NCBI GenBank assembly: GCA_036172245.1
Contig: JAYWIR010000031.1
Coordinates: 1,364,001-1,428,000, forward strand
Length of the DNA: 64,000 nt
DNA from: Raillietiella orientalis
Taxonomy: Eukaryota
Direction: 5' to 3'
Part shown: positions 11,282 to 62,968 of the stretch, one piece after another
How the letters are laid out: each line of letters opens with the position of its first letter
How positions within the stretch are numbered: the first letter of the stretch is position 1
The notes under the pieces: model-generated
Told to the model about the DNA's origin: nothing
Databases searched by the model: none
What the model saw: only the letters and a program-made list of their open reading frames with translations
Translations under genes and position numbers: made by a program

Positions 11282-12202
11282 ATGTTTATTTTCGAGTACT
11301 GTTTTCACTTTTTGAAAAAGAGGATCGTATTGGGTATTATTTTCACATTTTCTTTAACGTACTGCATCACCAACTTAATGAAGAGCAAGGTGAGTTCACG
11401 AGAAATAATGTTAAACTTACATTGGTAAGAATTCAAAGATTTAATAATTGAGTATAATTGAAGTGTTCCTGAGAAAGATATTCACACGTTTCGTATGTGT
11501 AGCGATACGATGATAGTAATCACATGGATACAGTTGCAAGAGTAAATAAAATAATTTGGGAAATAGAATCAAATAAAAGTTTGCCATCATCTTGTCGGAA
11601 TTCGAAACAAGGAAAACATTTAATAGCAGATGACAAAGGTACTATTCCCATTAATCTAAGCACTAAAATTCATATTTTCATTGTGAAGTAGATATCTTTA
11701 AGTTCTGTTCGTTGCAAGTAAAAGACAAAAATATTTGGGTTATACGAGTTTTACGACACGATATTTGTATTTAAAGGTATGGTATGTCAAAGGCAAAAAC
11801 TTCAAACTAATGGTTGCTGCAGTAATGAAACGGAAGTTTCTAAGCGTTATTCTTGTGAGACATGCAATAGAAATCATTGCTGTAGCATATATGAATATTG
11901 TGTGTCTTGCTGTTTGCATCCTTCCAGGGTAAGAATTCATAGTAAAAGTTTGTATGAGAATTTGTGCAATTTTTTTTTGTTTTCTTGAAAATTAGAAATC
12001 AATGCTTCAGCTTGTACTAAGTAAAGCTTCAAGGACATTGAAAATGATATTTTCATCAGTAATGGATCATTTTGAATTATGTTTAGCAAAGTGTCGCACA
12101 AGTTCACAAAGTCTACATAATGAGAATTCGTACAGAAACGCAAAAGAAAAACATTGTTATGGCATTGAGGCACCTTCAGTTCAAGAAAAGCCTGTTGAAT
12201 AA
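11282..12202 (+). CDS. SPRING1: SREBP regulating gene protein (SPRING/C12orf49 homologue), 4 exons: 11282-11389, 11503-11638, 11777-11928, 11996-12202
   Basis: The spliced GT-AG model keeps frame. It has an N-terminal signal anchor (LKKRIVLGIIFTFSLTYCI), CRNSKQGKHLIADDKG, the Cys-rich CCSIYEYCVSCCLHP and DHFELCLAKCRTSSQSLHNENSYR, all characteristic of C12orf49. Confidence 0.92.
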
Positions 12203-14735: not shown

Positions 14736-16487
<1,752 letters not shown>

Positions 16488-19400
16488 ATGACGAAAGATA
16501 GGTTAGGAGCCTTGAAAGCGGTAATGTACTACTTGCATTCAATTTTCATTTGCTTGTAGCTTCTGACAGTATTCGTATAAACTGTCAAAACTGATTGTGT
16601 AAATAATTTCATGTGAGCAGATAAATACGTAGTGCAAAATTTATACTGAATTGATATCCCGAGTGATTCATAAGGCTATTGGGCTCATTAATTCCTTGTG
16701 TTTTTGCCTAATTTTAATGATTCACCGAGAACTGATATTTAAAATATTTCCACGTACCCAAAAACTTTTCACATCTCGTGAACATCAACGAAAGAGACCT
16801 CAATTTGCATAGGTTTATTCCCCAAGGGAGTTCAAGCAAGTGTTACGTGGGGATTGTATCTATTTTATTCATGTATATGGAATGTAATACATAAGTTGAT
16901 AGCGAAGGAATATATCTGTGATTCAGAGAAGATTACCAATACAGAGGCGATCTAAAAGTGGACTTTGAGTTTAATTAAAAACTGTCAATTGATGGATATT
17001 GTCAACACAAATTCGAGTTAATGATTTAGAGTAGCAAAGCATTTTCTTGTTTGCATTCATTCAGCAGAAAATGCACTATTGTCTCAAATGGCATTGCCCT
17101 ATCATGCATTGAATATCTATTCCTGCCGGCATCTGTAATGCCCTAAACATGAAACAGTACTGGATGGATTCTTATATTTCATGTTAGTGCAGTTTTGAAA
17201 ACCGAAAATCTTTAATATTCACGAGGAATATATTGATAATTAGTAGGAAAGAAAGGAAATTGTTTGTGATCTTGTAGCAGGAGGATGTGAATGTACTTAA
17301 GAATTCATCCAGAATTTTATAATAATGCAGAGGACTGGAGAATTTTCAACTTTTGCAATTCTCTGTATTATTGGAAATAATGGAATAGGATATTTATGAA
17401 TTTCATATAATATGGTTATAACATCAATTGATTATCATATCAGATCATCCACATAGTATGCATTGATTAAACTGTGGTCAAATCAGTTAATTATCACTCA
17501 GTAATTTCGTTCATTATCCAAAAGAATCTGTGTATGGAGTATACATAAATGTACTAGTGCTAACCATAACATTTGCTGAGTTTCCAGTTCTGGGATACCT
17601 GCTTAGATTTATAGTTGTCCAACTGCCTCTTTGAATCTTTTTTCTTATAAGCAAATCCCAAAAACCAGCATTGTTCTTGTTTCATAAGTAATTAATGTGT
17701 GGTTGATTATTCCTTGATAGATTATGATTGCTTGTCAAACCATTTGTTTTTCAAATCAATGGGTGTATATTGTATGAATTTTAGTCATTCATGTTTTTCA
17801 ATCCAGGATGTCTCTAATAGATTCTACTTCTATTTGTAACATTGAGAGCTATGATCAGGAATTTTGAATTCATTAATGAAAATTCATTTTATTCATGGAA
17901 AAAAGGAACTTTCCAATTAAGCATCAGGAAAAATTGTTTCATCTACTGACCATTTTTAAACTAGCTTTAAAATTCTTTCAGTCTTTGGTTTAATTTCTTC
18001 TGCATGATGTGTCTATTTATCCACACTGCACAGCATTTTGTGTAACATAACCTTAGACTGCTGAAAAACTACTACACTATCATAAAGAAAAGACATTCAT
18101 TTCTTTGAAGTTGCCAGTAGTCAAGTTTTCATACAGAGTTTTTGAGACACGTGTTTTTATGTGATGTCAAAAAATTATGAAAGTTGTTTTTCTCATTTTT
18201 TTTTGTTTTTGAAAAGTTTTAATCTGAGTAATTTTTGAATTCTTTATAAAAAATGAATTTTTTTCAAAATGTTATTTGCATAGAGACTACAAAATTATGA
18301 AGCAACACTCATGGAAGATAAAAGGATTGGAACATAAAACCAATAATTATGACAAATTTTGGAGAATGTTAAACAGTAGAAATGAAGGGAAAGGATGTAT
18401 TATTAAAAGTTTAAATTAGTAAGATAATTAATAATGATCCATGAAATTCTCAAATTTTTTTCGATTGACGAAGTTCAAGTTTATCAGGAATTCTGGTGAT
18501 TGTTCTAATGATGGATGTAATTATATGATTGAATTGTACAAGATAAAGTGTTCCAGCAATAATTTGAACAGATTTGGAAGTAACTTTTATACAGTATCGC
18601 ATGTACTTGTGTTTTGCATTAATCGTATGATAGAAAATTAAAGATGCATGTTTACCTTCAAGATGAAGTTATGAGTACAAAATAATGTAAGTCATACAAA
18701 ACTTTGTAATTTACAGATACCATGTAGTATAAGATGAAAATGGTCAATTGCTACCATGAAAATTTAGTCATAATAAGATATGTATAAATGCTTGGTACAA
18801 AAAGTTCACCTGTATACTAGCCCTAGGACTATCAAAAGTAATTTAGAAAATTAGTTAAGGTTTCTCAAATGATGTATAATGCTTCTAATTTCTTCTTTAT
18901 AACCCTAAAGCATTGCAGTAATTAAGAATAAAGCATGAAGCAAAAATGCAGGAAAGAGAAGGATAAAAGGCAGTTTGTTTCATGAAGTTCTTGTCACTCA
19001 GTTGGTGAAACCGTTATATGTGAACATATATTGGCAGGTCTATAATTGAATGCCTTTTATTCGTAGCTGTATTACTCTCGAAAAACTCTTTGTTATCCTA
19101 TAAGTTGTTCTTAAAAATGATAAAATAATTTCATTGCTTTGAAACAGCTAAATTTTGATTTAAATTCCTTTGTTTCTATTCAGGACAAATCAGTTGTAAA
19201 GTTGCAGAATGTGAGGCACAAGATTTGATGTTATCGAATTTTTTCTGTTTTTTTAATACTTGTGTCTGAATAGTGAAAGTGAGTTTGCTGTTTTTTTTTT
19301 TGTTTTTCATTGTTGAACTGGTAATCATTTTATTTTCTTGTTATGCAACATATACAAAACATCTTTAGGGAGAGGCGAGGGGAAAAGCAGTTTTTGTGTT

Positions 19401-21844
19401 GGTTGTATTCAAGAAATATAGTCACTGTAAAGAATTCGTGTCCAATATTTTTGTTCTATGCACTGTTAATTATTTCAAATATGTTTATAGCATTAATATC
19501 TCAATTTCCAAGCATTTGCACTAGTTCTTGAGCTAGATAAATTTGTCTCTTTATTGCATGTGTTGCAGTTTTCCATTTTGAGAATTATATGGTGAACCAG
19601 AGGATTTGACCCAATTCATAGGGCTGAAGTAAGAAAGAATAATTCAAGGTTCTTGCATACAAATAGAATACATTCATAAACTTCGAAAGTTGGGTTCACT
19701 TAAAAATTTGAGAGAGAATAAGGATGGTAAACTCTTTGAAATGAAAAGACAAATCATTGCATGCGCAATTTAGTAAAATACTGCAGCAATTCTGTCACAG
19801 AAGTTGAATTTGCATCCACAGTTTAATGCTTTTTCTTTGCTACTTATAATGATTATTTTGATTTCTTTTCTCAGTTTGCCTGTGTTGCGTGGTCAGGTTT
19901 TTTTCGGTTAATAGTTTGTTTATCTCTTCATTAAAAGATTTCAGTTTAATAGATTGTGTTTTTTTAGGGGTTTTTTTTCCTAATTGTCAGAGAAACTGTT
20001 AACAAGTGTCAAGAAATTCCTAGCAGAGATGTGGAAAGAATGAATCAATGTTTCAATCGGAAGTTAAAATAGAATGTTCTAATCAGTTTTCTTTAACAGC
20101 CAAAATTATATTCTCATTTCTTATAGTGCTCTGTATTTTTCAGCCTGTTATTGATGTACTATTTTGTAAATATATGTATCAAATCGATTATTGCCCTGGT
20201 GCAATTGAATTTACCTTCATTTTTTTGCATAGTTTTTAATGTATACAGTCTTGTATTCTTTATCATTTTTATTCTTTGCCAATTTTTCATTGAAGTTTTT
20301 GTTGTTCCAATTTGGATGCTTCCGAAATAATATTTCAAATTCTATTGTTTTGCTGGTATCTTGTAAACACATACATTGTGCTACTTTTTGTTAATACTCC
20401 TTAATCATTGAACTTGTCTGATCACAAAGATGTGATATACCTATCTATGCATAGAAACACAAGGACTGTTTTCTGTTTATTAGATAGTGGACTTAATGAT
20501 GAATGAACACTGACCAGTTTTATTGAGAGTCCTTTTTTTTTAAAAAAAAAAGGTTCTCATGGAGAAGTTCAGCATTTTTTTAATTGTATATTTCAGATCT
20601 AGGTCATTGGTGTATTTCCTATCATTTACACTGTTTAATCTCTTAGTAATAAACTTATTGATTTTTGTAGGCTTTAAGTGAAGAAGATGATGTTGGTGCT
20701 GGGGAGGTGGCAGTTACAGTTGATGATGGCCAACCTGGATTCATGGATGAATTCTTTTCTGAGGTTTGTGTTTCAATCATCTTGTTTTTCTGTCAAGTGT
20801 TGTAGGTGGAAGAGATTCGAAATAGCATTGATAAGATTCAGGGAAATGTGGATGCTGTGAAAATGAAGCATAGTGCAATTCTTTCAGCTCCACAAACTGA
20901 TGAAAGTGAGTAATTGCTCATGCACATTAACATTACTGTATGGCAGGAATGAAACATGAACTGGAGGATCTCATGGCTGACATCAAAAAGACAGCTAATA
21001 AGGTGCGAGCTAAACTGAAAGGTAAGTTGCAATAAAAAAAATCAATACACAGTTGTTGCAGTTATCGAACAGAACATTGAGCAAGAGGAACACATCAACA
21101 AAGCATCAGCTGATTTGCGTATACGCAAGACACAACATTCCACTTTGTCACGTAAATTTGTGGAAGTCATGACAGAGTATAATCGGATCCAGACTGATTA
21201 CAGGGAGAGGTGCAAAGCACGCATCCAAAGGCAGCTGGAGATCAGTAATTGAGATGTAACTATGGTAGAAGTTTTGTAGAACTTCATTTTTGTAGCTGGT
21301 CGTACAACCACCAATGATGAACTGGAGAGGATGTTGGAGCAGGGCAATCCTGCTGTTTTCACTCAGGGTGTAAGCTCTGCAAGGAAATAGCAGGATGCTG
21401 TGCATGTGCTCCCTCAGATCATTATGGAAACGCAGCAAGCAAAGCAAACGTTGGCAGATATTGAAGCACGTCATGCTGACATCATTAAACTGGAGACGTC
21501 CATCAAGGAGCTGCATGACATGTTCATGGACATGGCTATGCTTGTAGAGAGTCAGGTTAGGAGTAATGCAGGATTTCAGTGTTCCAGCCTTGGATTCTTT
21601 AGGGTGAGATGATCGATCGAATCGAATACCATGTGGAGCATGCAGTGGACTATGTGCAAACTGCAACCCAGGATACCAAGAAAGCACTAAAATACCAAAG
21701 CAAAGCTCGAAGGGTGAGAACTGCTGCTGCTTGTATTTCTTGTTGGCATGCTTTTGCTCTCATCAGAAGAAAATCCTCATCATCATTTGCTTAGCTGTGC
21801 TACTAGCTATCTTAGCACTAGTTTTAGCTGTGACTCTGAAATGA
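16488..21844 (+). CDS. STX1A: Syntaxin-1A, isoform using terminal exon A. Exons 16488-16520, 20671-20763, 20806-20905, 20947-21021, 21062-21244, 21296-21369, 21418-21555, 21603-21713, 21767-21844
   Basis: [11 protein letters not shown] start; Habc region [60 protein letters not shown] motif [62 protein letters not shown]-terminal TM helix. All junctions are GT-AG and in frame. Confidence 0.97.
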
Positions 21845-21900
21845 AGAGGCATGCCTCTTGATTGTTTTCACGCAGTTGGATGCAGCTCTGTCACTTGCAG

Positions 21901-21978
21901 AAAAAGACCTGTCTTGCAATCCTTATCGCTCTGTTCATGGGACTGATCCTGATTTTTCTCGTCATCCTGTTATTCTGA
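21901..21978 (+). CDS. STX1A: Syntaxin-1A alternative terminal TM exon B (KKTCLAILIALFMGLILIFLVILLF*)
   Basis: Acceptor CACTTGCAG immediately upstream, phase 0 like exon A, starts KK followed by 23 mostly hydrophobic residues and a stop. AATAAA at 22064. Confidence 0.8.
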   Translation, partial: KKTCLAILIALFMGLILIFLVILLF

Positions 21979-22198
21979 ATCCCAGTTTACCTCATCTAGT
22001 CAGAGCTCTTAATCCTCAGCTTCCAGCTGGCTATCTATCCTTGCCACCTGTTCCCAAAGATGCAATAAAAGTATATTTTTGATATATTATGTGCATGTTC
22101 TTAGCACGATTTGCATCGAAGACGTATTTCTTGTCGTCATCACTTTGCATGCATGCTCTGTGGTTTGTTGACAGGATATCTTGATGCTTGTGTTCCAG

Positions 22199-22282
22199 AA
22201 AAAGATTTTCATTATTATATGCCTGGCTATTCTGGGAGTGATCTTAGCTACAACTATTGGCAGCTACTTTGGTTTGGGATAG
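22199..22282 (+). CDS. STX1A: Syntaxin-1A alternative terminal TM exon C (KKIFIIICLAILGVILATTIGSYFGLG*)
   Basis: Acceptor TGTTCCAG, phase 0. Closest of the three to the vertebrate syntaxin-1 tail as I recall it (KKIMIIICCVILGIxIASTxGGIF). Confidence 0.88.
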   Translation, partial: KKIFIIICLAILGVILATTIGSYFGLG

Positions 22283-24299
22283 CCATTTCTGCAATCACAT
22301 CAAAATAATGCCATTTGAGAGCAGTGCCTGAGCCAGTCCGTTAATTTTTCTTAACTGCCATTTTGTCAGAGTAACAAGAAATCAAGAAACTCATCATTTG
22401 TATGTACAATCATGTACAGAATCTGTTTTTCCTGGTTGCTGCTTGTTGTATTGTGTATGTGAAAACCTGGTTCAGCAATAATTTCAATGTCCTAAGAACC
22501 AGAGCTGATCCAAATTTGGTGCTATAGCACCACCACCTATGCTATTTTGTTGAACTGTTTTTCATGGTTAACTTGTTTTTGGATTCAGCTGCTGGTCATC
22601 CAGTCTTTCATTTAGTTTCTTAATTTTGTTGATAGTATTTTTTTTTTTTTTTTCTTTTTTGGAGGGAAGAAAAAAAAAAAAACAAACAAACAAACTCGAA
22701 TGAATATTAGCTGCTGGAATTTGTTTTATAGGCATCGATTCTACGTCTCGTATTTTAGTATTTAAATTATGGTATGAAAGCATTCCAAATTCTTTAAAAC
22801 GACTATGGAAAGTTTCGTTTTCTATAAAGTTTCCCATGTTATGTTTGAAAATGGAAGCAATAAATCCATAACAATGATTAAAACTAGAGTACGCGTAAGG
22901 CGTATAAAGCAATAAGAATGTAGTTATCAACTTAATATGAGGTCTTTATTGTTAATAATGTATTTTCTGGTAAAACAAAACTGAGTGGCGTAAAGTGATT
23001 CATCTTTACTGTGTGTTATTGAATTGTTGGAGACCCATTTCAAATGGACTTATCGAGGGAATATTTGAATTTTGACTTTGCTTAATGTATACTTGAATAA
23101 ATGGATATGAAAAACTAATTGGTTTTCTGTTCTCTTATGTAACAAAAACAGGACATTATCTAGAAAGCAAAAGCAAATTTGAATGATTTTGAAGTAAATT
23201 TGCAAGCATCAACAAAAAAGCACGCCTAAAATTGTTTTCTGGTAACCCCTGTTTATCGGAACATGAAAAATCTGAATGCCTGCGGTCATGTTACGCTTTT
23301 GGATGTAATTGAGTGACCAAACATCTAAGTGAAATCTGAAATTTTCTAAGTTCTTGAAAGTGCATCTAAAATTCGAGTTGATTTTGTAGATTAGGGATGA
23401 TAAAGCGTTGGTAAGCCTGTCGCTTCGCACACACTGACAGGCGACACGGTGTGCACGCTAAGAATCGCCAAGAAAGTGTTTTGTTTTGCGATTTTGCTTC
23501 GCAGCATGAATGCTGAAATTTGTCAAAGACTCAAGCATAGGCATATTTTTACATTGTAGAAACCAAAACAGTATTTGTAAGAGACTTTACTGAAGTCAGT
23601 CACTCTGATAATTAATCATGGATTTGTTTGCATTAAGCTTATAGCCATTCCTCCAGGTAGATTGAAATTTCGTTGTCATTTCACTGACCTTGCTCTCGTA
23701 GGGTTACAGAGATGACGATAAAGCTATACCTGACGGCAAAACGAAGGATGTTTCTCTTGGCAAAAGAAGGAACAGTATAAAACTCTGAATGATTCCATCC
23801 AAACAGCTAAGCAAAAAGCAGAGGAAACAAAGTCAAATTTTATTAAAAGTACCGTAACTTAAAGATTTCGGAGATGAGATTGAAAGGTTGTGAAGAGCAA
23901 AAATGTTGCAGGTCATTTTCCCAGAAGTGTCGTAACGCCGACTTTTAGCAAAACCGAATGTTGCAACAAACCAGATATCACATTTAACGAAACGCAGAAA
24001 TGAAAGGACTGTGACGAGAATTCAGAACGAAAGCTTAATTTAAGTGTCACTTATTTTCTGTAGGACATTAAAACATCTCCAGGTACGAGAATAGCATGAA
24101 ACGCTGATTCTCATATGAACGTAACAAATTCTTTGCATAAGCGCCAACGCTTTTTTCTGATTTTGATTATAAAAAATACATACATGTTGAAATATGAGCT
24201 GCTGATCAAGCCAGAATTACTGCGGTCGGAGAATTGAATAATTACCGCAGTGCACCAAACCAATCAAAGCCATGTTTCTTTTACATATTCTCTCAAGTT

Positions 24300-30980: not shown

Positions 30981-32509
30981 ATATTGTGGACCTCAAAAAA
31001 ATGAAAACGCATGCTTCTGATCTTCTGATCTACTTTTGAAGAGCGAGCCAGTTTTGCGGTGCTTAGAACTTTTCTGACAAGTCAGCGTGACCTCTCCAGC
31101 TGAAACCACAAGGATTCAGAAGAAACGGAGAAGGGATGCAGAGCTTTATCCTCCGGGTATGACAACTTGCAAGGGTGTAAGGGAATATCAACGTCGCATG
31201 ACTCGATTCTGTTCTAAAGCAATTTCTAGAGTTCAGCAGTGCGCAGAGCATTCGTTCGAGTGACCGAGGCCACGTGTTGACTGAAGAACATAAGCTAAGG
31301 AATCAGTGGGGGGGTTGCATTGACCATAAAGTTCAGACCTCTATGAGAGCATCAATATCGGCATCGCTATTATCAAGCTATTATCAGTTGTCGTCCAGGC
31401 AGGGAAGAACCTGCGGGTAGAGTAAATCCTGGACTCCTGCTTTGGGTTATACCATTGCAAGGAACGAGTTCATCTCAAAGAAATCATCACAGCACAAAGG
31501 AGGGTATGGAAGGTTGGCTCCAGGACTTCTTCGGTTATTTTTAATTATATGCATTGCTGCTGACGTGCACAGACTCTCTTGTGAGGCAGTCTTTTTTTTT
31601 TATGTGGCGCAAGAAACTTATCGACTCCTTCCCTCCCCACCCCATTCGTCGAATTTCGAAAGCAGTCAAAACTCTGCTCCTGAAGTTTCCGATCCTCACT
31701 GAATCTGTCTATGTTTCTGATCTCGTTCGAAACTGCGATTCTTTCGAAGTTCCTCTCTTCGCATTCATCCTGAAGGATCCTGTTGCGTACCAAGGGGTGC
31801 ACCCCCCTCCCCCTATTCGGACGGAATGCAGCAACGCAACTGCGTCCCAAAACTAAGCTCCATAGCTTTCGTGTGATTTACCGTATCCGCAGAGCAATGT
31901 GTGACACTTTCGCTGATTTCGTGCACACTTCGTACATTCGAGACGATAGCTGCTTTGGAACAAAGCTATCATAAGATCATGAAGCTGCTCGACCAGTCCT
32001 TCCGCAGCACTCAATGAAGCTGATGGCATGGGAGTCATCATTTATTCTCAGTCCAACTAAGCAAATGGCAAAGAAAACAAATGAATTTGATGTTTTTTTT
32101 TCCATAACTGAAAAAATAAAATAAAATACAGCAGCAAGTGCAAATCATATAGAAACGGAACTTCTTGCATTACGTATTGAAGAAGAATCGTTCTCGTGAG
32201 CGTACATTCCAAATTCTGTGGCACTCAAAAATGCAGTTATGTTTTTGTTTTTCTATTCATCTGTTCCCCCCCCCCCATTTTCAAGTGATAACTTTTGAAG
32301 GAGGAAAAAGGCGTGCTTTTGCTTTCTTGCAAGTACATTTAGCAAAAGTGCCCTGTCGAGCTCAAACGAATGCTCACCAACAACTTATAGGAAGGTTTGA
32401 ATGTGGATTGAGTGTGGGTGTGTGCAATGAACAATTTCCGCCAATTAATGCTTTACTTCATGAATTTTTCATTTAAATTGCTAATGAATATGAAGCTCGT
32501 GAGGTGAGC

Positions 32510-32580
32510 AATTCGCGTTTGTTGAATTCGAATTTTCGTAATTCCGAATTTTCGAGAATTCGAATATTGGAATTTTCGAG
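32510..32580. repeat. Short tandem GAATT(TT)CG array containing a perfect three-unit heat-shock-element match
   Basis: gaattcgaattttcgtaattccgaattttcgagaattcgaatattggaattttcgag; cGAAt-tTTCg-aGAAt at 32545-32559. Confidence 0.6.
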
Positions 32581-32637
32581 GTGGCCGTTACGAGCCAACG
32601 AAGGTTCTGTTAGCAAGCAGAAGGCAGAAGCAGAACC

Positions 32638-34307
32638 ATGCAGAAGCCGTCCAGGGCGGCGACCGCCTCCAAACAGGTCCAGAAGGATCCGAAACAGGAA
32701 CGCAGCTTCGAAAACCGGTGGTTCCACTTGATGCACAACTTCACGAGGTAGGTAGGGGGAGTGGCGGAGGAGGAGAGGAGGAAGGGAGGAGTCCCTCCCG
32801 CTCCCCGTCTCGCGGGACCGCCTCTTGCTCGAGGGAAAGTCCCGATGCAGGTGGAAGGACCCCGCGGACGGCTTCCGGAAGGAGAGGAACCCGGTCAAGT
32901 CCGACAGCGACTCGGACACCATTCCCGAGATTCTGCCCGTGCGGACGAGGGCAGCCCGCAGGCCAAACACGGGCGGGCACTTCACCGCGGGCTTCTCGGG
33001 CAGCAAGCAGGTCCCCGATCTGAAGCCCGTGGCAGCAACCCAAAAGAAAGGAGACTCGCTGCTGCCCAGGAACCGGAGTTACCGCTCAAGGGACGTGGGC
33101 CGGCTGATGAGCCACCTGAACGAGCTCTCCAAGGGGATGCTGCCGCTGTACTCGTTCTGGAAGAGTGGCCTCTGCGTAGCCAAGGGCTCCGACCCCGTGA
33201 TCGAGGGCGTCCGCCACAAGATCGAGGGGATCTGCAGCAGCATCAGCTGCTGTCTGCAGAAGAAACCCAAATACGGGGACTGCCCGAACAACTACATGGA
33301 AATATTTTACGACCACGGAAGCGTCCTCATGGGGAACATCTCCAACAGCCTCCGCAACCTGCAGCTTTACTGCTCCCAGCCCTCCTCCCACCACAAGGAG
33401 GCGGACCCCAAGGCCATGCTGGAATGCCGCCAGATATGGGGGATGCTCCTCATGTTCTTCGTGCAGTTCTGGAACAAGGATATCAGGAAACCCTGCAGCT
33501 TCTGGGACGCCTGGTCCCTGGCTACCATACCCACGCGGCACCAGACCTACCAGCAGTTCAGTGAGTGTGCTGGGAGGGGCTCGAGCAACGCGCAGGGACG
33601 GGAGCGGCCACCGGAGGCGCTTGCGGCTGCGTGGCCCGATTTCCCTCGTCCTTCTTTGGCTCGCCAGCGCCTCCCGGTGTGGGTCTCCGAAAGGGAAAAG
33701 AGAGAAGTCTCCAGAATTGTCCGAGCCTTTCCTTTAGGAACTATTCCACGAGGAGACCCGGAGGGGAAAGCAGGCTGGCGAGGGTCTGAGCTGATTCTCG
33801 GAAAGGGGTCGTGGCGCCTTGCTTTTCCCGTCCCCTCGGCGTTGAAGGGCGTGCCGGCGAGCGCTCGGATAAGGAGAAGAGGAACTGGGGCCTCCTCGAG
33901 GGGAGAGAGGCTTCCTTCCCCACGCGCGGCCAGGGGAAGGTTCGTTCCCTTCGCGCCCGCTGCTGCCACCCGCCGGCTGGTCCGGAGGTTCCACCCGGAA
34001 GTAAACTCACTTCCGGGTAGAACCTTTCCCTTCCCCCTTTCTCAGAAGGATAGAGGGGGGGTGGAGTCGGAACAGGGAAAGGGTGCGGCAGCCCATGGTG
34101 GTCTCCTCCTCCTCCTCCGCTTCCGGAGCAGCAGCCGGCAAACGTTCTCTGCTTCCAGTGAAGACGTCCTCGGCCATGGTGACGTGGCTCAGCTCCAGCT
34201 CCGATGACCAGGGAAAAATCGCCGCCGCCCTAGAGAGCCTGGCCGAGTACGGCAAGGCCATGATGGGAACGGTGGCCTTGGAAGAAACGGAGACCTTGCC
34301 GGAGTGA
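32638..34307 (+). CDS. Uncharacterised GC-rich gene, about 322 aa; predicted exons 32638-32747, 32851-33560, 34159-34307
   Basis: ACCATG start. The AG|GTAGGT donor joins GCAG|G in frame to the long ORF 32825-34207, and the A|GTGAGT donor joins CTCTGCTTCCAG|TG in frame. Predicted exons have strongly G/C-ending codons. No family recognised; the last exon is less certain. Confidence 0.65.
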
Positions 34308-36641
34308 CCTCCCAGAATGGCTGTCGCTCCCAGAACTGGCAGCTCCAAGGAGCAAGACGCAGTTCACCGGGTCAGAAGCACCACCAAGAGCGGCCTCTGC
34401 GTAGCCAAGGACGCCGAGGGCACCCGACACAAGATCGAGGGGATCAATCGGTCCCTTATTGTGATCTCATTAAATGTTTTCCGTGCACTTCGATTTAACT
34501 TCATTCTGCTAACCCTGTTGCCCCATTAGTGATTTTGCAATCCCATCAGTCTTTATGTTTTACAGGCAGCTAGGAACTGGATATTATGTGTTCCCCCTTT
34601 TCCTGGTTTTGACTTTATCTGTCTTGAATGATCTGTCTGCTCTTTAACCAACTTGGCGACTTCCACGGAAGATTTTCCGTAGATTTTTGATTTTGAAGAC
34701 AGTTCTTAACTGAAAGTGCTCCATCGGCACGCATAATTAATAGCATGCGTCACATAGCATACTGTTGACCGTCTCTGCATCCTTGTTTCATTTGACCAAC
34801 TTTTTCGTGATACTAGGTGCATAAGATGAGTTTCCAAGTATGAGCTTCTTACGTAAAAGGTTACTGCTAAAAGCATCCTTCCGTGATGAGTTTTCCTCAT
34901 CGGTGACAAAGTTCCACAAGACAGAGGAGTCGCTTTCGTCTAATCCATCGCAGCTCATTTGCATTTTTGAATGCAACCATGCATGATCAAAGTAAACGAA
35001 GCCTCCCGATATTTTGCAAGGTCTTTACTGTCATCGTTTGTTCATTCAATCCCACAACTTTTTGCTGTTTGCAAATGTTATCCTGTGCCAAAACTGACTC
35101 CAGATCTGTGTTCTCTAATTACAAACCACTTCGAATGAGCAATTGCTGAGATCCTTAGCTTTTCGTCTGAGATCTCAAGTGCTAGCAATTTCAGTCTTTG
35201 GTTCCACTGCGAGAGCATGTTTGGTGTGATGACCTAATGTTCTTTCTCATATGATGGTTTCTCATCTTGTTTCGACCACAGAACGTTGGGATGTTGTAGA
35301 AGTCGAACTCTTGCAGTGGAATATTCAACGGTGCTTCTTTATGTTCTCTGGTTCTTAATTGGTGTACATGAGGTATTGCTGCTGATTCTTAACTTCTTTT
35401 CTTCTCATCTCTGATCTAATGGCGGAGCTTGATTCGAATATTACTGTACAAACGAACGTTCTCGTTGCTTTCCTCTGTGCGAGTGTGCAAGCGTTTACAA
35501 TACAACTGCTGTATATCCACCGGTTCCAGACACAGAGATGAAATGAGGAACAGACATGGAATGGTACATTTTAATGTGAGCTATTTTTCACTGTTGGAGA
35601 GAACAGGTTGGAATCTTTTCCATAACGTTGTCATCTGAAATTTCCATATGAAACTTTAACTTTTTGACTGAACTCCAGACGTAATGTTTGAAATTTGCTA
35701 TTGAAAGCGAGAGAAGCATGCTTCACCCTTAAGCAGAACGAAAACCACTGTTTGTCCAAGAAAAACAAGAAATCTTGAAAAATCCCCATGTACAGAAATC
35801 AAAGCATGCCTCTGGATATCTGGAGATCTGTTTTTCACACTTTCTAGACCTTGATCAAGAAACTCCCAGTGAAGGAATGCTTTTGTTTCTTTGGAAATCT
35901 TGAAAGGATATTTTTCAATAATTTCAAAGATGAGAATCCCAAATTTTTTGATCTAAGATCATATGGAAATAAGCATTGTGACAAAAATGTTTACCAATAT
36001 GAAGCCAAAGTCCCAATCCTTGGGGCATACAAAGAGATCCCTTTTTTTGGATCATGCAATTATTCTGGGTTTACTAACAGAATTTTATTCAGAATTATGA
36101 AATATTTCTTATAGTTTTAGGTTGGAGTTATCTGTCCATCGAGGATACTATAGGAAAAAGAATTAAATGAATTTCCTTTTACTCGCATCTCTATTCATAT
36201 ATATTGGTAGTGTCAATTAGATAAAGTGAAAATACATTCGAATGAATAATGTTATATTAAAAATGTGAAGAAAAAATGGAGAAAGCAATACATAGTTCTG
36301 CTTTATTGTGAGTTCTAGTATGTGCTTAGGAGTAAGAAAAATATCTCTGGATGGGGAAACATTGTGTTGGTTATTGAATCTACTACCTGGAATTTTGAAA
36401 ACTCACTTCTCATACGATGGTTGGTAATATTTTTATAAAATATTGAATCTTTATTCATGAGGTACCCGCTTCCTTAGTTTGATTAAATAAAGACTTTCGA
36501 TTTTAGAATGTTTCAATCTGGCAATCCTTATGAGAGTTCTGCTCGCCCTCATAGGGTACGGATGCAGGCGAAGTGAATGAATTGTACAGGGTTTCTGTTG
36601 GAGTAAAGCTGCTAAAAGTTTAGTGAAAACAACTGAATCAA

Positions 36642-60230: not shown

Positions 60231-62968
60231 TCATTGCTGGAATGTATCTCTGCATTCTTTGGAGCAAAACACACTCCCATTCTTGCACAGAACTTTGCTT
60301 TTTAAAAGACCTTTACGACAAAACTGACAACAAAAGCACTCTGATCTGGCATGCCAATTGCAATCATTCAGACTAACTCGCTGCTCCTCAGGGTTAATAG
60401 CTAACTTGCATGTGCAACACAGCTACAAAAAATCATTGTGGTTATCAGCCAAATGCACCTGCATTTTAATATACTAACTTTGCCAAACTTTTGCTGGTAA
60501 CAGCTCAAACAGTAGGGTAATTCATCTTTGGTTATGTAACACTGACCAGCAAGAGGGCAATCACAAGCCCAACAACAAAAATGATTCAGATGCCAATCCC
60601 ATCCCTCTGCATGAGTGTACTCTTTGGAAAAGATTAATTCATCGCATGCCTTGCAGCGTGGAATTTTCACTTCTCCCGCAAAATGACGTCCACAAAATAT
60701 CTTTCCATTATGGTGAAAGTAAATGAGATCCACCAAAAGTTCCTAAGTAAAAAGAGAAAATGAAATGCGAGAATATTTTACTTTTCTTGGTTAATAAATC
60801 ATAGCAGTCAAAAAAAATGTTTCTAGAAAAAAAATATTGCTCATAAATAAAATCTCGCATGAAACTAAAAAACAACATAAAACAAAAGGAGAAACGAAAT
60901 TTACTACTGTTTTACCTTGCATAAGAACATATTTCCACGAGAATCTTAGAAAAACGTATAGTTTCAAGCAATGTGTCCATGAAAATGCTGGAACAGTAAT
61001 TTAATGACTTCAACCAGTCAGTTTCATTGAATACAACGTCTCTTAATATGTACAAGGAGAAAACGCACTCTATACATGCAGACATCAAATTTAGTACCTG
61101 TTCTTCATACATGGATAAATAAACTTGTGTAACAAGACCAACAGAAAAACACTCTACGGTGCAATAACTTGGAGGCATTTTTTTGAAAGCTTTTGAGATA
61201 TTTCCTTAAAACGATACACTTCACTTCATAAGCCGTGCTAAAACTTATTATTCAATTCATTAGCAATCATTGAGAACGGAAATATGATCTACGATGGTAA
61301 TCAACTCAATAGCTTAAGAACGGAATGACCTATTGCAAATAGATGAACTGGGGCCTTTATCTGAAAGAATATGTTCCCGAAATAATTGCAATACACAAAT
61401 AAACATGAAGACCCAGTTTCTATTCAAAATACGAAAATTCTGAAAGGAAGAACAATCCTGCAGCCACCCAGAGATGGCTGAAATCATTGCAAAACAGCTC
61501 TCAGTTTCTTCTGGTATGTGAAGGTTTGTTCTTACAAGGATGAAGGCGTTTCAAAATCATTCAATGAGCACAGGAATATTGCTCAATTCTGGACGAATAT
61601 AACCTGGCTTTTGAAGCCATAAATCTTCAAAGTTTCATGGCAAAAGCAATTTGAATTTAGTTTTCCAAAACTCTCATACTTTCAAAATTTGCAAGTTTGA
61701 TATCGATTCGATACTTTAAACGACGCTAAAAGTGCAAGTAGTAAGCAACTGTAGTACCTTCTATTTAAATGAAAAATGTATTACAGACAATGGGCTATAG
61801 AAGTGAATTTCAACACCGTCATAAACCAGTGTCTTATGCATTATTGTGCTAATTACTGTAAAGGAAACTAATGAAATCATATTAAACGTTTTAATAGGAT
61901 ATGCTAAATAGCTTTTAATTAAGAATGGAATAAAGTCGTTAGCACCAGAATATTAGAAGTAATAACAAACTAGAGACAAATACCAAGACGTGTTTTGTTC
62001 ACACTTTGATCTGAGAATCGCTTCTCGGCCTTTTGGCTGGCGTTCACACCAAAACATACGTAACTATTGATCCTCAAGATGACAGGAGGAACTGATTGCT
62101 GATTACAAATCTCCTGGCTTTCCAAGATTGTGATAACATTTTAAAACACACTTCGAAAACAACAGTATCAAAAAACCCCTTGTGATGATTGATTAGAAGT
62201 TAATTCCAGTTTTACTCAAGATCTATTAGAGGAGACAAAAAATCATTGGTAATGATGAAAGTCTACGCAGAATAAAAAAATGAAATAAGTCAAAACTTTT
62301 TCCTGTCAAGAAAACTCATCAAGATGAATTTGAAAAAACAACTCTGCATTACGAATATATATTCATGAACTTATTTAACTCCTTATTCACACACTCTTTT
62401 TGTCAAAGTTGGAAATACATCCTCCAATAACATGAACTTTCAAACACAATCAGTACTGACACATAGGTTTCTGGCAGCTTGTGTAATCAAGTAACACATG
62501 TATGGAAATAAATGCAACACACTGTATGATACAGAAGTATTCCTTTAAAATTTACATAATAACTTACTTTACAAATGCAACATGTAAAACATGAAGGATG
62601 CCAACACTTGTTCTTTCCAACTCGATCAGCAAACACGGCCACTTCTCCCTTTTTAATAGCTTGGGAACATTCACAGCAATTCCAAGTTCTTGTATCCGTG
62701 CATGACAAATTGTCTCCTGTTGTAGGAGATGAATTGCAGATGGAGTTATTTTTTAATGCAAGTGACTCGGAATCGAGTTTGTTTTCTGTAAGTTCAGAAA
62801 GAAGCTCAGCTGATCTTGTGTTTCCTGTTCCTTGCTGACATGGGTAAACAATTAAAAAAACATTCTTGCATCAAGGTACTTACTTCCTTCACAACTGATG
62901 ATGCAAATTCTTTTACCATACCTAAACCTACAACATGCTGTTTGATATTTTCTATGTATTCCTGCAGG
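60231..62968 (-). CDS. TES: Testin (PET + 3 LIM), 3' portion; exons 62968-62884, 62834-62568, 60742-60479, 60422-60231; 5' exons probably beyond the window
   Basis: PET end (EYIENIKQHVVGLGMVK); LIM1 CCEC..[27 protein letters not shown]; LIM2 PRCKACDELIF..WHLNHFCC; LIM3 CCTCKLAINPEEQRV..WHARSECF..FCSKEC. The stop comes right after LIM3, as in testin and unlike prickle. Confidence 0.9.
62001..62038 (+). pseudogene. Truncated, rearranged U2 snRNA 5' fragment
   Basis: 62017-62038 ATCGCTTCTCGGCCTTTTGGCT matches U2 nt 1-22. 62001-62012 is the reverse complement of AGATCAAAGTGT (U2 nt ~24-35). No Sm site or 3' half. Confidence 0.85.

Follow-up and report, generated by a model that had tools for sequence, protein, structure and literature searches.

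Three competing membrane-anchor acceptors behind one donor in a syntaxin-1 gene of a pancrustacean-like arthropod

Alternative membrane anchors at the C-terminus have been described for several syntaxins. In C. elegans, the exons 8a and 8b of unc-64 encode two anchors whose choice is under the control of UNC-75/CELF, and the neuronal exon is the proximal one (PMC4946901). The human proteins STX3A and STX3B differ in half of the SNARE helix as well as in the anchor (PMC11476516), and the C-terminal swaps of STX2 and STX3 are reported to be tandem exon duplications of Bilateria age with equivalents in Daphnia magna (PMC8373072). A syntaxin-2 splice-variant paper of 1999 is cited by title in PMC1156879, and the available text and supplement of PMC9741552 make no mention of STX2 or STX3. 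Alternative C-termini in unc-64 and in vertebrate syntaxins, which a sequence-only reading of the present DNA had given as established, are in print for unc-64, STX2 and STX3. A literature search with little reach into subscription journals turned up nothing on arthropod arrays of three or more anchors, nor on an Rbfox-type protein that chooses among anchors in arthropods.

The window, that is, the whole 64,000-nt stretch of DNA analysed here, holds on its plus strand a complete gene model of eight GT-AG exons and 269 codons, which runs without a stop from the ATG at 16488 to 21713. The core protein is 88.8% identical to syntaxin-1A of Bacillus rossius, 86% to that of Folsomia, and 86-89% to the named Syx1A proteins, and the best matches of the coding exons reach 93-95% identity but never 100%. 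Both domains of a syntaxin-1 (plasma-membrane Qa-SNARE) were found (Pfam PF00804, E 6.9e-16, and PF05739, E 1.6e-14), and the polybasic juxtamembrane stretch (KARR plus KK) is followed by a C-terminal membrane helix in all three anchor exons, with a hydropathy of 2.8-3.5. Exon 8 is single-copy in the window (one tblastn match), and the 210-Mb genome to which the window belongs has at least one syntaxin-1 locus (one match from one candidate). The gene is best explained as a Syx1A/unc-64-type syntaxin-1 of a pancrustacean-like arthropod, with its last exon in three tandem versions. The introns of the coding region measure 40-51 nt apart from intron 1 (4150 nt), and very short introns, of 40-53 nt, are found all along 20764-21766. 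The features of the gene are as follows.

16488..16520, plus strand: coding exon 1 with the start codon and N-peptide, then a 4150-nt intron (gene model without a stop)
20671..21555, plus strand: coding exons 2-7, with the Habc domain, the linker and the first half of the SNARE helix (gene model)
20671-20763, 20806-20905, 20947-21021, 21062-21244, 21296-21369 and 21418-21555, plus strand: exons 2 to 7 singly
21064-21243, plus strand: Pfam Syntaxin match, E 6.9e-16
21603..21713, plus strand: exon 8, which completes the SNARE helix with its second half and ends in the codons for the juxtamembrane KARR (Pfam SNARE, E 1.6e-14)
21714..21719, plus strand: shared phase-0 donor AGG/GTGAGA (sequence; GT at the same position in 59/80 related loci)
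21746 and 21849, plus strand: GCATG motifs flanking A (sequence)
21767..21844, plus strand: anchor exon A, 25 aa and TGA, Cys8, no Gly, preceded by a 53-nt intron (18/25 to the Bacillus rossius X3 tail)
21901..21978, plus strand: candidate anchor exon B, 25 aa and TGA, Cys4, three Phe (chance rate at most 0.002 per kb)
22064..22069, plus strand: candidate proximal poly(A) signal AATAAA for A and B mRNAs (P about 0.013 in a 220-nt interval)
22092..22155, plus strand: three Rbfox-type TGCATG motifs in the B-C interval, at 22092, 22146 and 22150 (P about 0.001)
22199..22282, plus strand: anchor exon C, 27 aa and TAG, Cys8, four Gly, distal and of the canonical syntaxin-1A type (E 3.7e-4 to PDB 2m8r)
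22859..22864, plus strand: candidate distal poly(A) signal AATAAA (sequence; alternatives ATTAAA at 22877 and AATAAA at 23096)

Three competing phase-0 acceptors stand behind one donor. All are CAG, they lie 3' of the donor at 21714 and end at 21766, 21900 and 22198, and each opens an exon that consists of KK, a hydrophobic helix and a stop. One donor is thus shared by terminal exons of the same phase with acceptors and stops of their own, all inside 520 nt, and the translations are exactly those given in the sequence-only reading. That reading had also held that the anchors differ in the position of the cysteine and in glycine content; the latter was confirmed by counts of 0, 1 and 4 Gly in A, B and C, whereas the former is true of B (position 4) and not of A versus C, in both of which Cys is at tail position 8. 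A and C have 13/26 positions in common, and third codon positions are saturated among A, B and C (5-8/26). Further downstream, at 22624-22694, the putative 3' UTR of isoform C has a long run of T and a long run of A that together make up an inverted repeat.

The layout resembles that of unc-64, where two alternative last exons differ in the 25-aa membrane anchor only; the comparison is one of published layout. One unc-64 form is neuronal and the other non-neuronal, with an RNA-binding protein making the choice, and a similar division may be envisaged here. The differences are that in unc-64 the proximal exon is the neuronal one, the regulator is CELF/UNC-75 and the exons number two (PMC4946901). 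Likewise, human STX2 and STX3 have alternative anchor exons behind the same junction (PMC8373072; PMC11476516). In STX3, however, the second half of the SNARE helix is swapped as well, and there are two anchors, not three (PMC8373072; PMC11476516). A double switch of the STX3A/3B type needs a duplicated exon for this second half, of which the window has one copy. The C-like exon of human STX3 is the last by its supplement coordinates, and the distal STX3B anchor agrees by eye with C in 16/25 positions against 11/25 for the STX3A anchor (PMC8373072). Anchor A, compared in the same manner, is not discriminated by its 11/25 to STX3A and 10/25 to STX3B (PMC8373072), so that any one-to-one orthology of A would be putative.

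Homologous exons conserved in relatives were found for both A and C. In the stick insect Bacillus rossius, a single gene has the isoform models X2 (XP_063226175.1), with a tail matching C in 20/27 positions, and X3 (XP_063226178.1), with a tail matching A in 18/25. Similarly, one gene of Temnothorax nylanderi (XP_071572829.1, XP_071572831.1) combines an X2 tail that matches C in 21/26 positions with an A-like X4 tail. Either tail stands behind an identical exon 8 in both insects, and exon 8 and the junction are as in the window; these NCBI isoform records are automatic models. Other examples include the X6 tail of Zootermopsis, with 19/24 matches to A, and the two different A-like tails of Harpegnathos X3 and X5/X6. 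Unlike the window, Bacillus rossius and Temnothorax nylanderi have a second version of exon 8, and a B-like tail is present in none of these insect models. Anchor C also aligns over 25 residues with the mammalian Syntaxin-1A anchor (PDB 2m8r, E 3.7e-4; 3hd7), its Cys8 coinciding with the first Cys of the mammalian pair. C has one Cys whereas STX1A has two, and the Cys of B is four residues nearer the cytosolic face than in the STX1A-type arrangement. Insects, worms and humans are already known to have the old switch to which A and C belong.

The comparison was extended to 80 related metagenome loci, many of them redundant. A GT follows exon 8 in 59, 19 run straight into an anchor, and two do neither. 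At least two anchor exons were found in 11 of the 59 GT loci, one in 18, and none, within the DNA examined, in 30. The 11 multi-anchor loci comprise seven with two anchors, one with three, two near-identical loci with four, and one with six, and a C-like exon is the last in L012, L015, L025, L027 and L079. In transcript-type contigs, exon 8 is joined to an A-like exon in L027 and to a C-like exon in L028 and L030. The earlier view that these are alternative terminal anchor exons has gained from such spliced contigs and from the orthologous A-type and C-type ends of the insect isoform models.

Several loci are of interest in their own right. A second, diverged exon 8 with 46-73% identity adjoins the first in 9/80 loci (L003, L020-L022, L024, L026, L047, L051, L070), the arrangement of the STX3A/3B-type switch of the SNARE half. 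L070:2015-5150 has two tandem versions of exon 8 (2015-2125 and 2153-2263). Its anchor exons, six in tandem, all possess a YAG acceptor, a basic start and a stop, and they form the largest array among the loci compared. Four anchor exons, the fourth C-like, are found in L079:10352-11470 and in L080; the third anchor of L079, with a pair of Cys at positions 3-4, resembles B more closely than any other tail, at a level that is not significant. The first anchor exon of L004 and L025 has a GT donor a few bases 3' of its stop, and in the transcript-type contig L009, from another species, tail 1 is followed directly by tail 2, so that a second anchor exon can act as 3' UTR. In the transcript-type contig L011:1303-1500 the join leads to one Gly-rich anchor; about 100 nt farther on lies a second frame that looks like a similar anchor but has no AG acceptor in the contig.

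In the proposed mechanism, the donor after KARR would be joined to one of the three competing acceptors, and each exon would add KK, a membrane helix and a stop, giving proteins identical over 269 residues that differ in the anchor alone. The mRNAs of A and B would most likely terminate at the proximal signal (22064), B staying unspliced in the 3' UTR of the A mRNA, and C would require the bypass of both acceptors and of that signal. The AATAAA at 22064 and at 22859, from which splicing coupled to polyadenylation had been suggested, were both verified in the sequence, and a third was found at 23096. The one at 22064 lies between the proximal and distal exons and would occur by chance in its 220-nt interval with P about 0.013; U/GU-rich sequence follows it. 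An AATAAA between anchors is present in 7/8 loci tested, above expectation in only two, and it is placed as in the window in L025 (P 0.04) and L070 (P 0.001).

With respect to the poly(A) step only, it is possible, if somewhat doubtful, that all three exons are used as plain alternative 3' splice sites with one shared 3' end and that the AATAAA at 22064 is incidental. The transcript-type contig L027 keeps this reading alive, as it is joined to the A-like exon and reads past two AATAAA as far as the C-like exon. Strict coupling to poly(A) addition is hard to reconcile with this, unless L027 was assembled from unprocessed RNA. The anchors of L015 have no AATAAA between them, and the unc-64 choice is made by selective intron retention, the word 'polyadenylation' being absent from the main text of that paper (PMC4946901). 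A shared 3' end is opposed by the low chance probability of the signal at 22064 with its U/GU-rich sequence and by the same placing in L025 and L070.

Exon B had rightly been called the most divergent of the three, and it has no homologue among the protein tails and locus tails compared. The protein set comprised 151 tails (132 distinct) from 245 proteins, of which 94 were excluded for having no short anchor tail; the best score of B was 8/25 identities. Among the 94, P0188 (Penaeus) has a longer tail with a Cys at 5 and is unlike B by eye. Against 42 tails from 24/80 loci, the best z was 2.1, which is not significant, and homology of B to the Cys4 tails of L079, L055 and L070 (z 2.1, 1.9 and 1.6 among the 42) was rejected. 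A PDB search with B gave chance matches only, and a profile search aimed at B, a weak one with its alignment two columns out of register, found no homologue. Anchor B thus appears, by the comparisons made, to be a third anchor with no known counterpart.

Two chance scans bear on whether such an exon may arise by accident. In the first, 3341 YAG sites of both strands were searched for a peptide of 19-35 aa with a best-19 hydropathy of at least 2.0. Thirteen sites passed, with A (3.54) and B (3.42) as the top two, and C (2.83) was outscored by one minus-strand peptide (2.97) that has no basic start. The stricter scan required a dibasic start and a hydropathy of at least 2.5, criteria which were set after the exons were known but leave a wide margin. 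It returned exactly A, B and C on the plus strand and nothing on the minus strand of the window, and the design is absent from the minus strands of the 80 related loci (406,791 nt of control DNA). Four Markov models give 0-0.002 such designs per kb, which for the 354-nt interval containing B amounts to an expectation below 0.001.

B is unlikely to be a chance product on these grounds, and the intact design makes it probable that it is functional. The opposing reading, that only A and C are real, B being either a duplicate in decay or T-rich 3' UTR or intron that reads as an anchor by accident, is rather improbable. It could draw on the lack of a homologue in any set compared, on the nucleotide identity of B of only 30/78 to A and 31/78 to C, and on a polypyrimidine fraction before its acceptor of 0.6 against 0.7 for A and C. 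Yet B has T at codon position 2 in 18/26 codons against 6 and 6 at the other positions, the pattern of a hydrophobic helix under selection and not that of a U-rich intron. Its third positions are saturated relative to A and C while the acceptor, KK, length and frame are intact, which argues against chance or decay. The full design occurs at no more than 0.002 per kb by chance and not at all in 407 kb of control DNA, and extra, unrelated-looking anchors are also present in L025, L070 and L079. An origin of B from a repeat was rejected, as B has a single match in its own genome (by a search that skips common words) and no tandem repeats overlapping the anchor region were found. Also rejected was a 3' UTR spliced from A to B in the manner of tails 1 and 2 of L004, L025 and L009, since there is no consensus-like donor from the stop of A to B.

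Regarding function, C, distal and with the canonical syntaxin-1A-type anchor, would most likely be the neuronal form, and broad expression is most likely for A, the other conserved anchor, by analogy with the tissues of STX3A/3B and unc-64. B would be an old, lineage-restricted extra copy under selection, as its intact design suggests. The expected effect of the choice is to alter membrane-domain sorting and palmitoylation geometry and not SNARE pairing, because the SNARE helix is common to all forms. Analogy with the known systems suggests that the anchors may tune targeting or fusion, as the sequence-only reading had it. The share of the syntaxin anchor in fusion is itself under debate (PMC9183232; PMC4946901), and two studies disagree on which UNC-64 isoform rescues (PMC4946901).

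It could be argued that the exons are used with functionally interchangeable anchors and that the accompanying 3' UTR matters instead, through mRNA level or localisation. For example, either UNC-64 isoform rescued regrowth when overexpressed (PMC4946901), the Cys position is the same in A and C, and mRNA localisation by distal alternative last exons is indicated by a cited title. This is nevertheless an unlikely account, as A-type and C-type sequences are distinct and conserved across insects and C is close to the mammalian anchor. Moreover, UNC-64A and UNC-64B were unequal in locomotor rescue (PMC4946901), and the anchor cysteines of STX1A and their palmitoylation affect spontaneous release (PMC9183232).

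As to what might choose between the anchors, the best candidate is a protein of the Rbfox type that would bind the (T)GCATG cluster and could act in either direction. The 331 nt of tail introns have five GCATG against 0.46 expected. Across 46 loci (redundant ones included), the 88,387 nt downstream of exon 8 contain 68 copies of TGCATG and 26 of its reverse complement, and upstream of exon 8 the counts are 50 versus 38. In the matching inter-anchor interval only 2/8 loci have TGCATG, and one TGCATG also lies within the six short constitutive introns. (U)GCAUG is the Rbfox motif; an exon tends to be repressed when the bound site lies upstream of it and promoted when the site lies downstream (PMC10551640). 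By this positional rule, the triple TGCATG would favour B or repress C rather than promote C (PMC10551640). An RNA stem switch was rejected, as the 11-bp stem of about 21743-21753 with 21843-21853 that brackets A in the predicted fold is not stronger than shuffles, and no docking/selector or loop-out duplex stronger than shuffles was found (region fold z +0.32; six interval pairs z -1.2 to +1.0).

The array adds one more case to a switch that is ancient and already known, and it reveals no new mechanism. It supports the published view that the two-anchor switch is older than vertebrates. A tentative generalisation, more doubtful than not, is that the anchor exon of invertebrate syntaxin-1 has expanded again and again as a cassette, to three copies both here and in L025, to four in L079 and to six in L070, and that each extra copy would provide the one SNARE engine with another membrane address or palmitoylation geometry. 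B would then be a functional third class with Cys at the membrane face, a position also seen in L079 (tail 3), L055 (tail 1) and L070 (tail 1), and the choice among the copies would fall to a protein of the Rbfox type at the (T)GCATG cluster. Because the cytosolic protein is identical in all forms and the three anchors are natural ones, the compact gene offers a clean anchor-swap or minigene system, and one-isoform models of arthropod syntaxin-1 will miss anchors in annotation.

The remainder of the window contains other genes. In a GC-rich stretch at 32470-34360, both strands have long open frames that overlap (483 and 270 codons), for which a Pfam search gave no convincing match. A small GTPase gene at 14736-15501 on the minus strand, Ran-like in type (Pfam gave Ras), stands head to head with the syntaxin gene, with about 1 kb between the start codons. 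One exon of a homologue of SPRING1 (SREBP regulating gene) lies at 11722-11988 on the plus strand (Pfam E 1e-18), and LIM-domain exons of a testin/prickle-family gene, with best named matches of 63-66%, occupy 60401-62870 on the minus strand.
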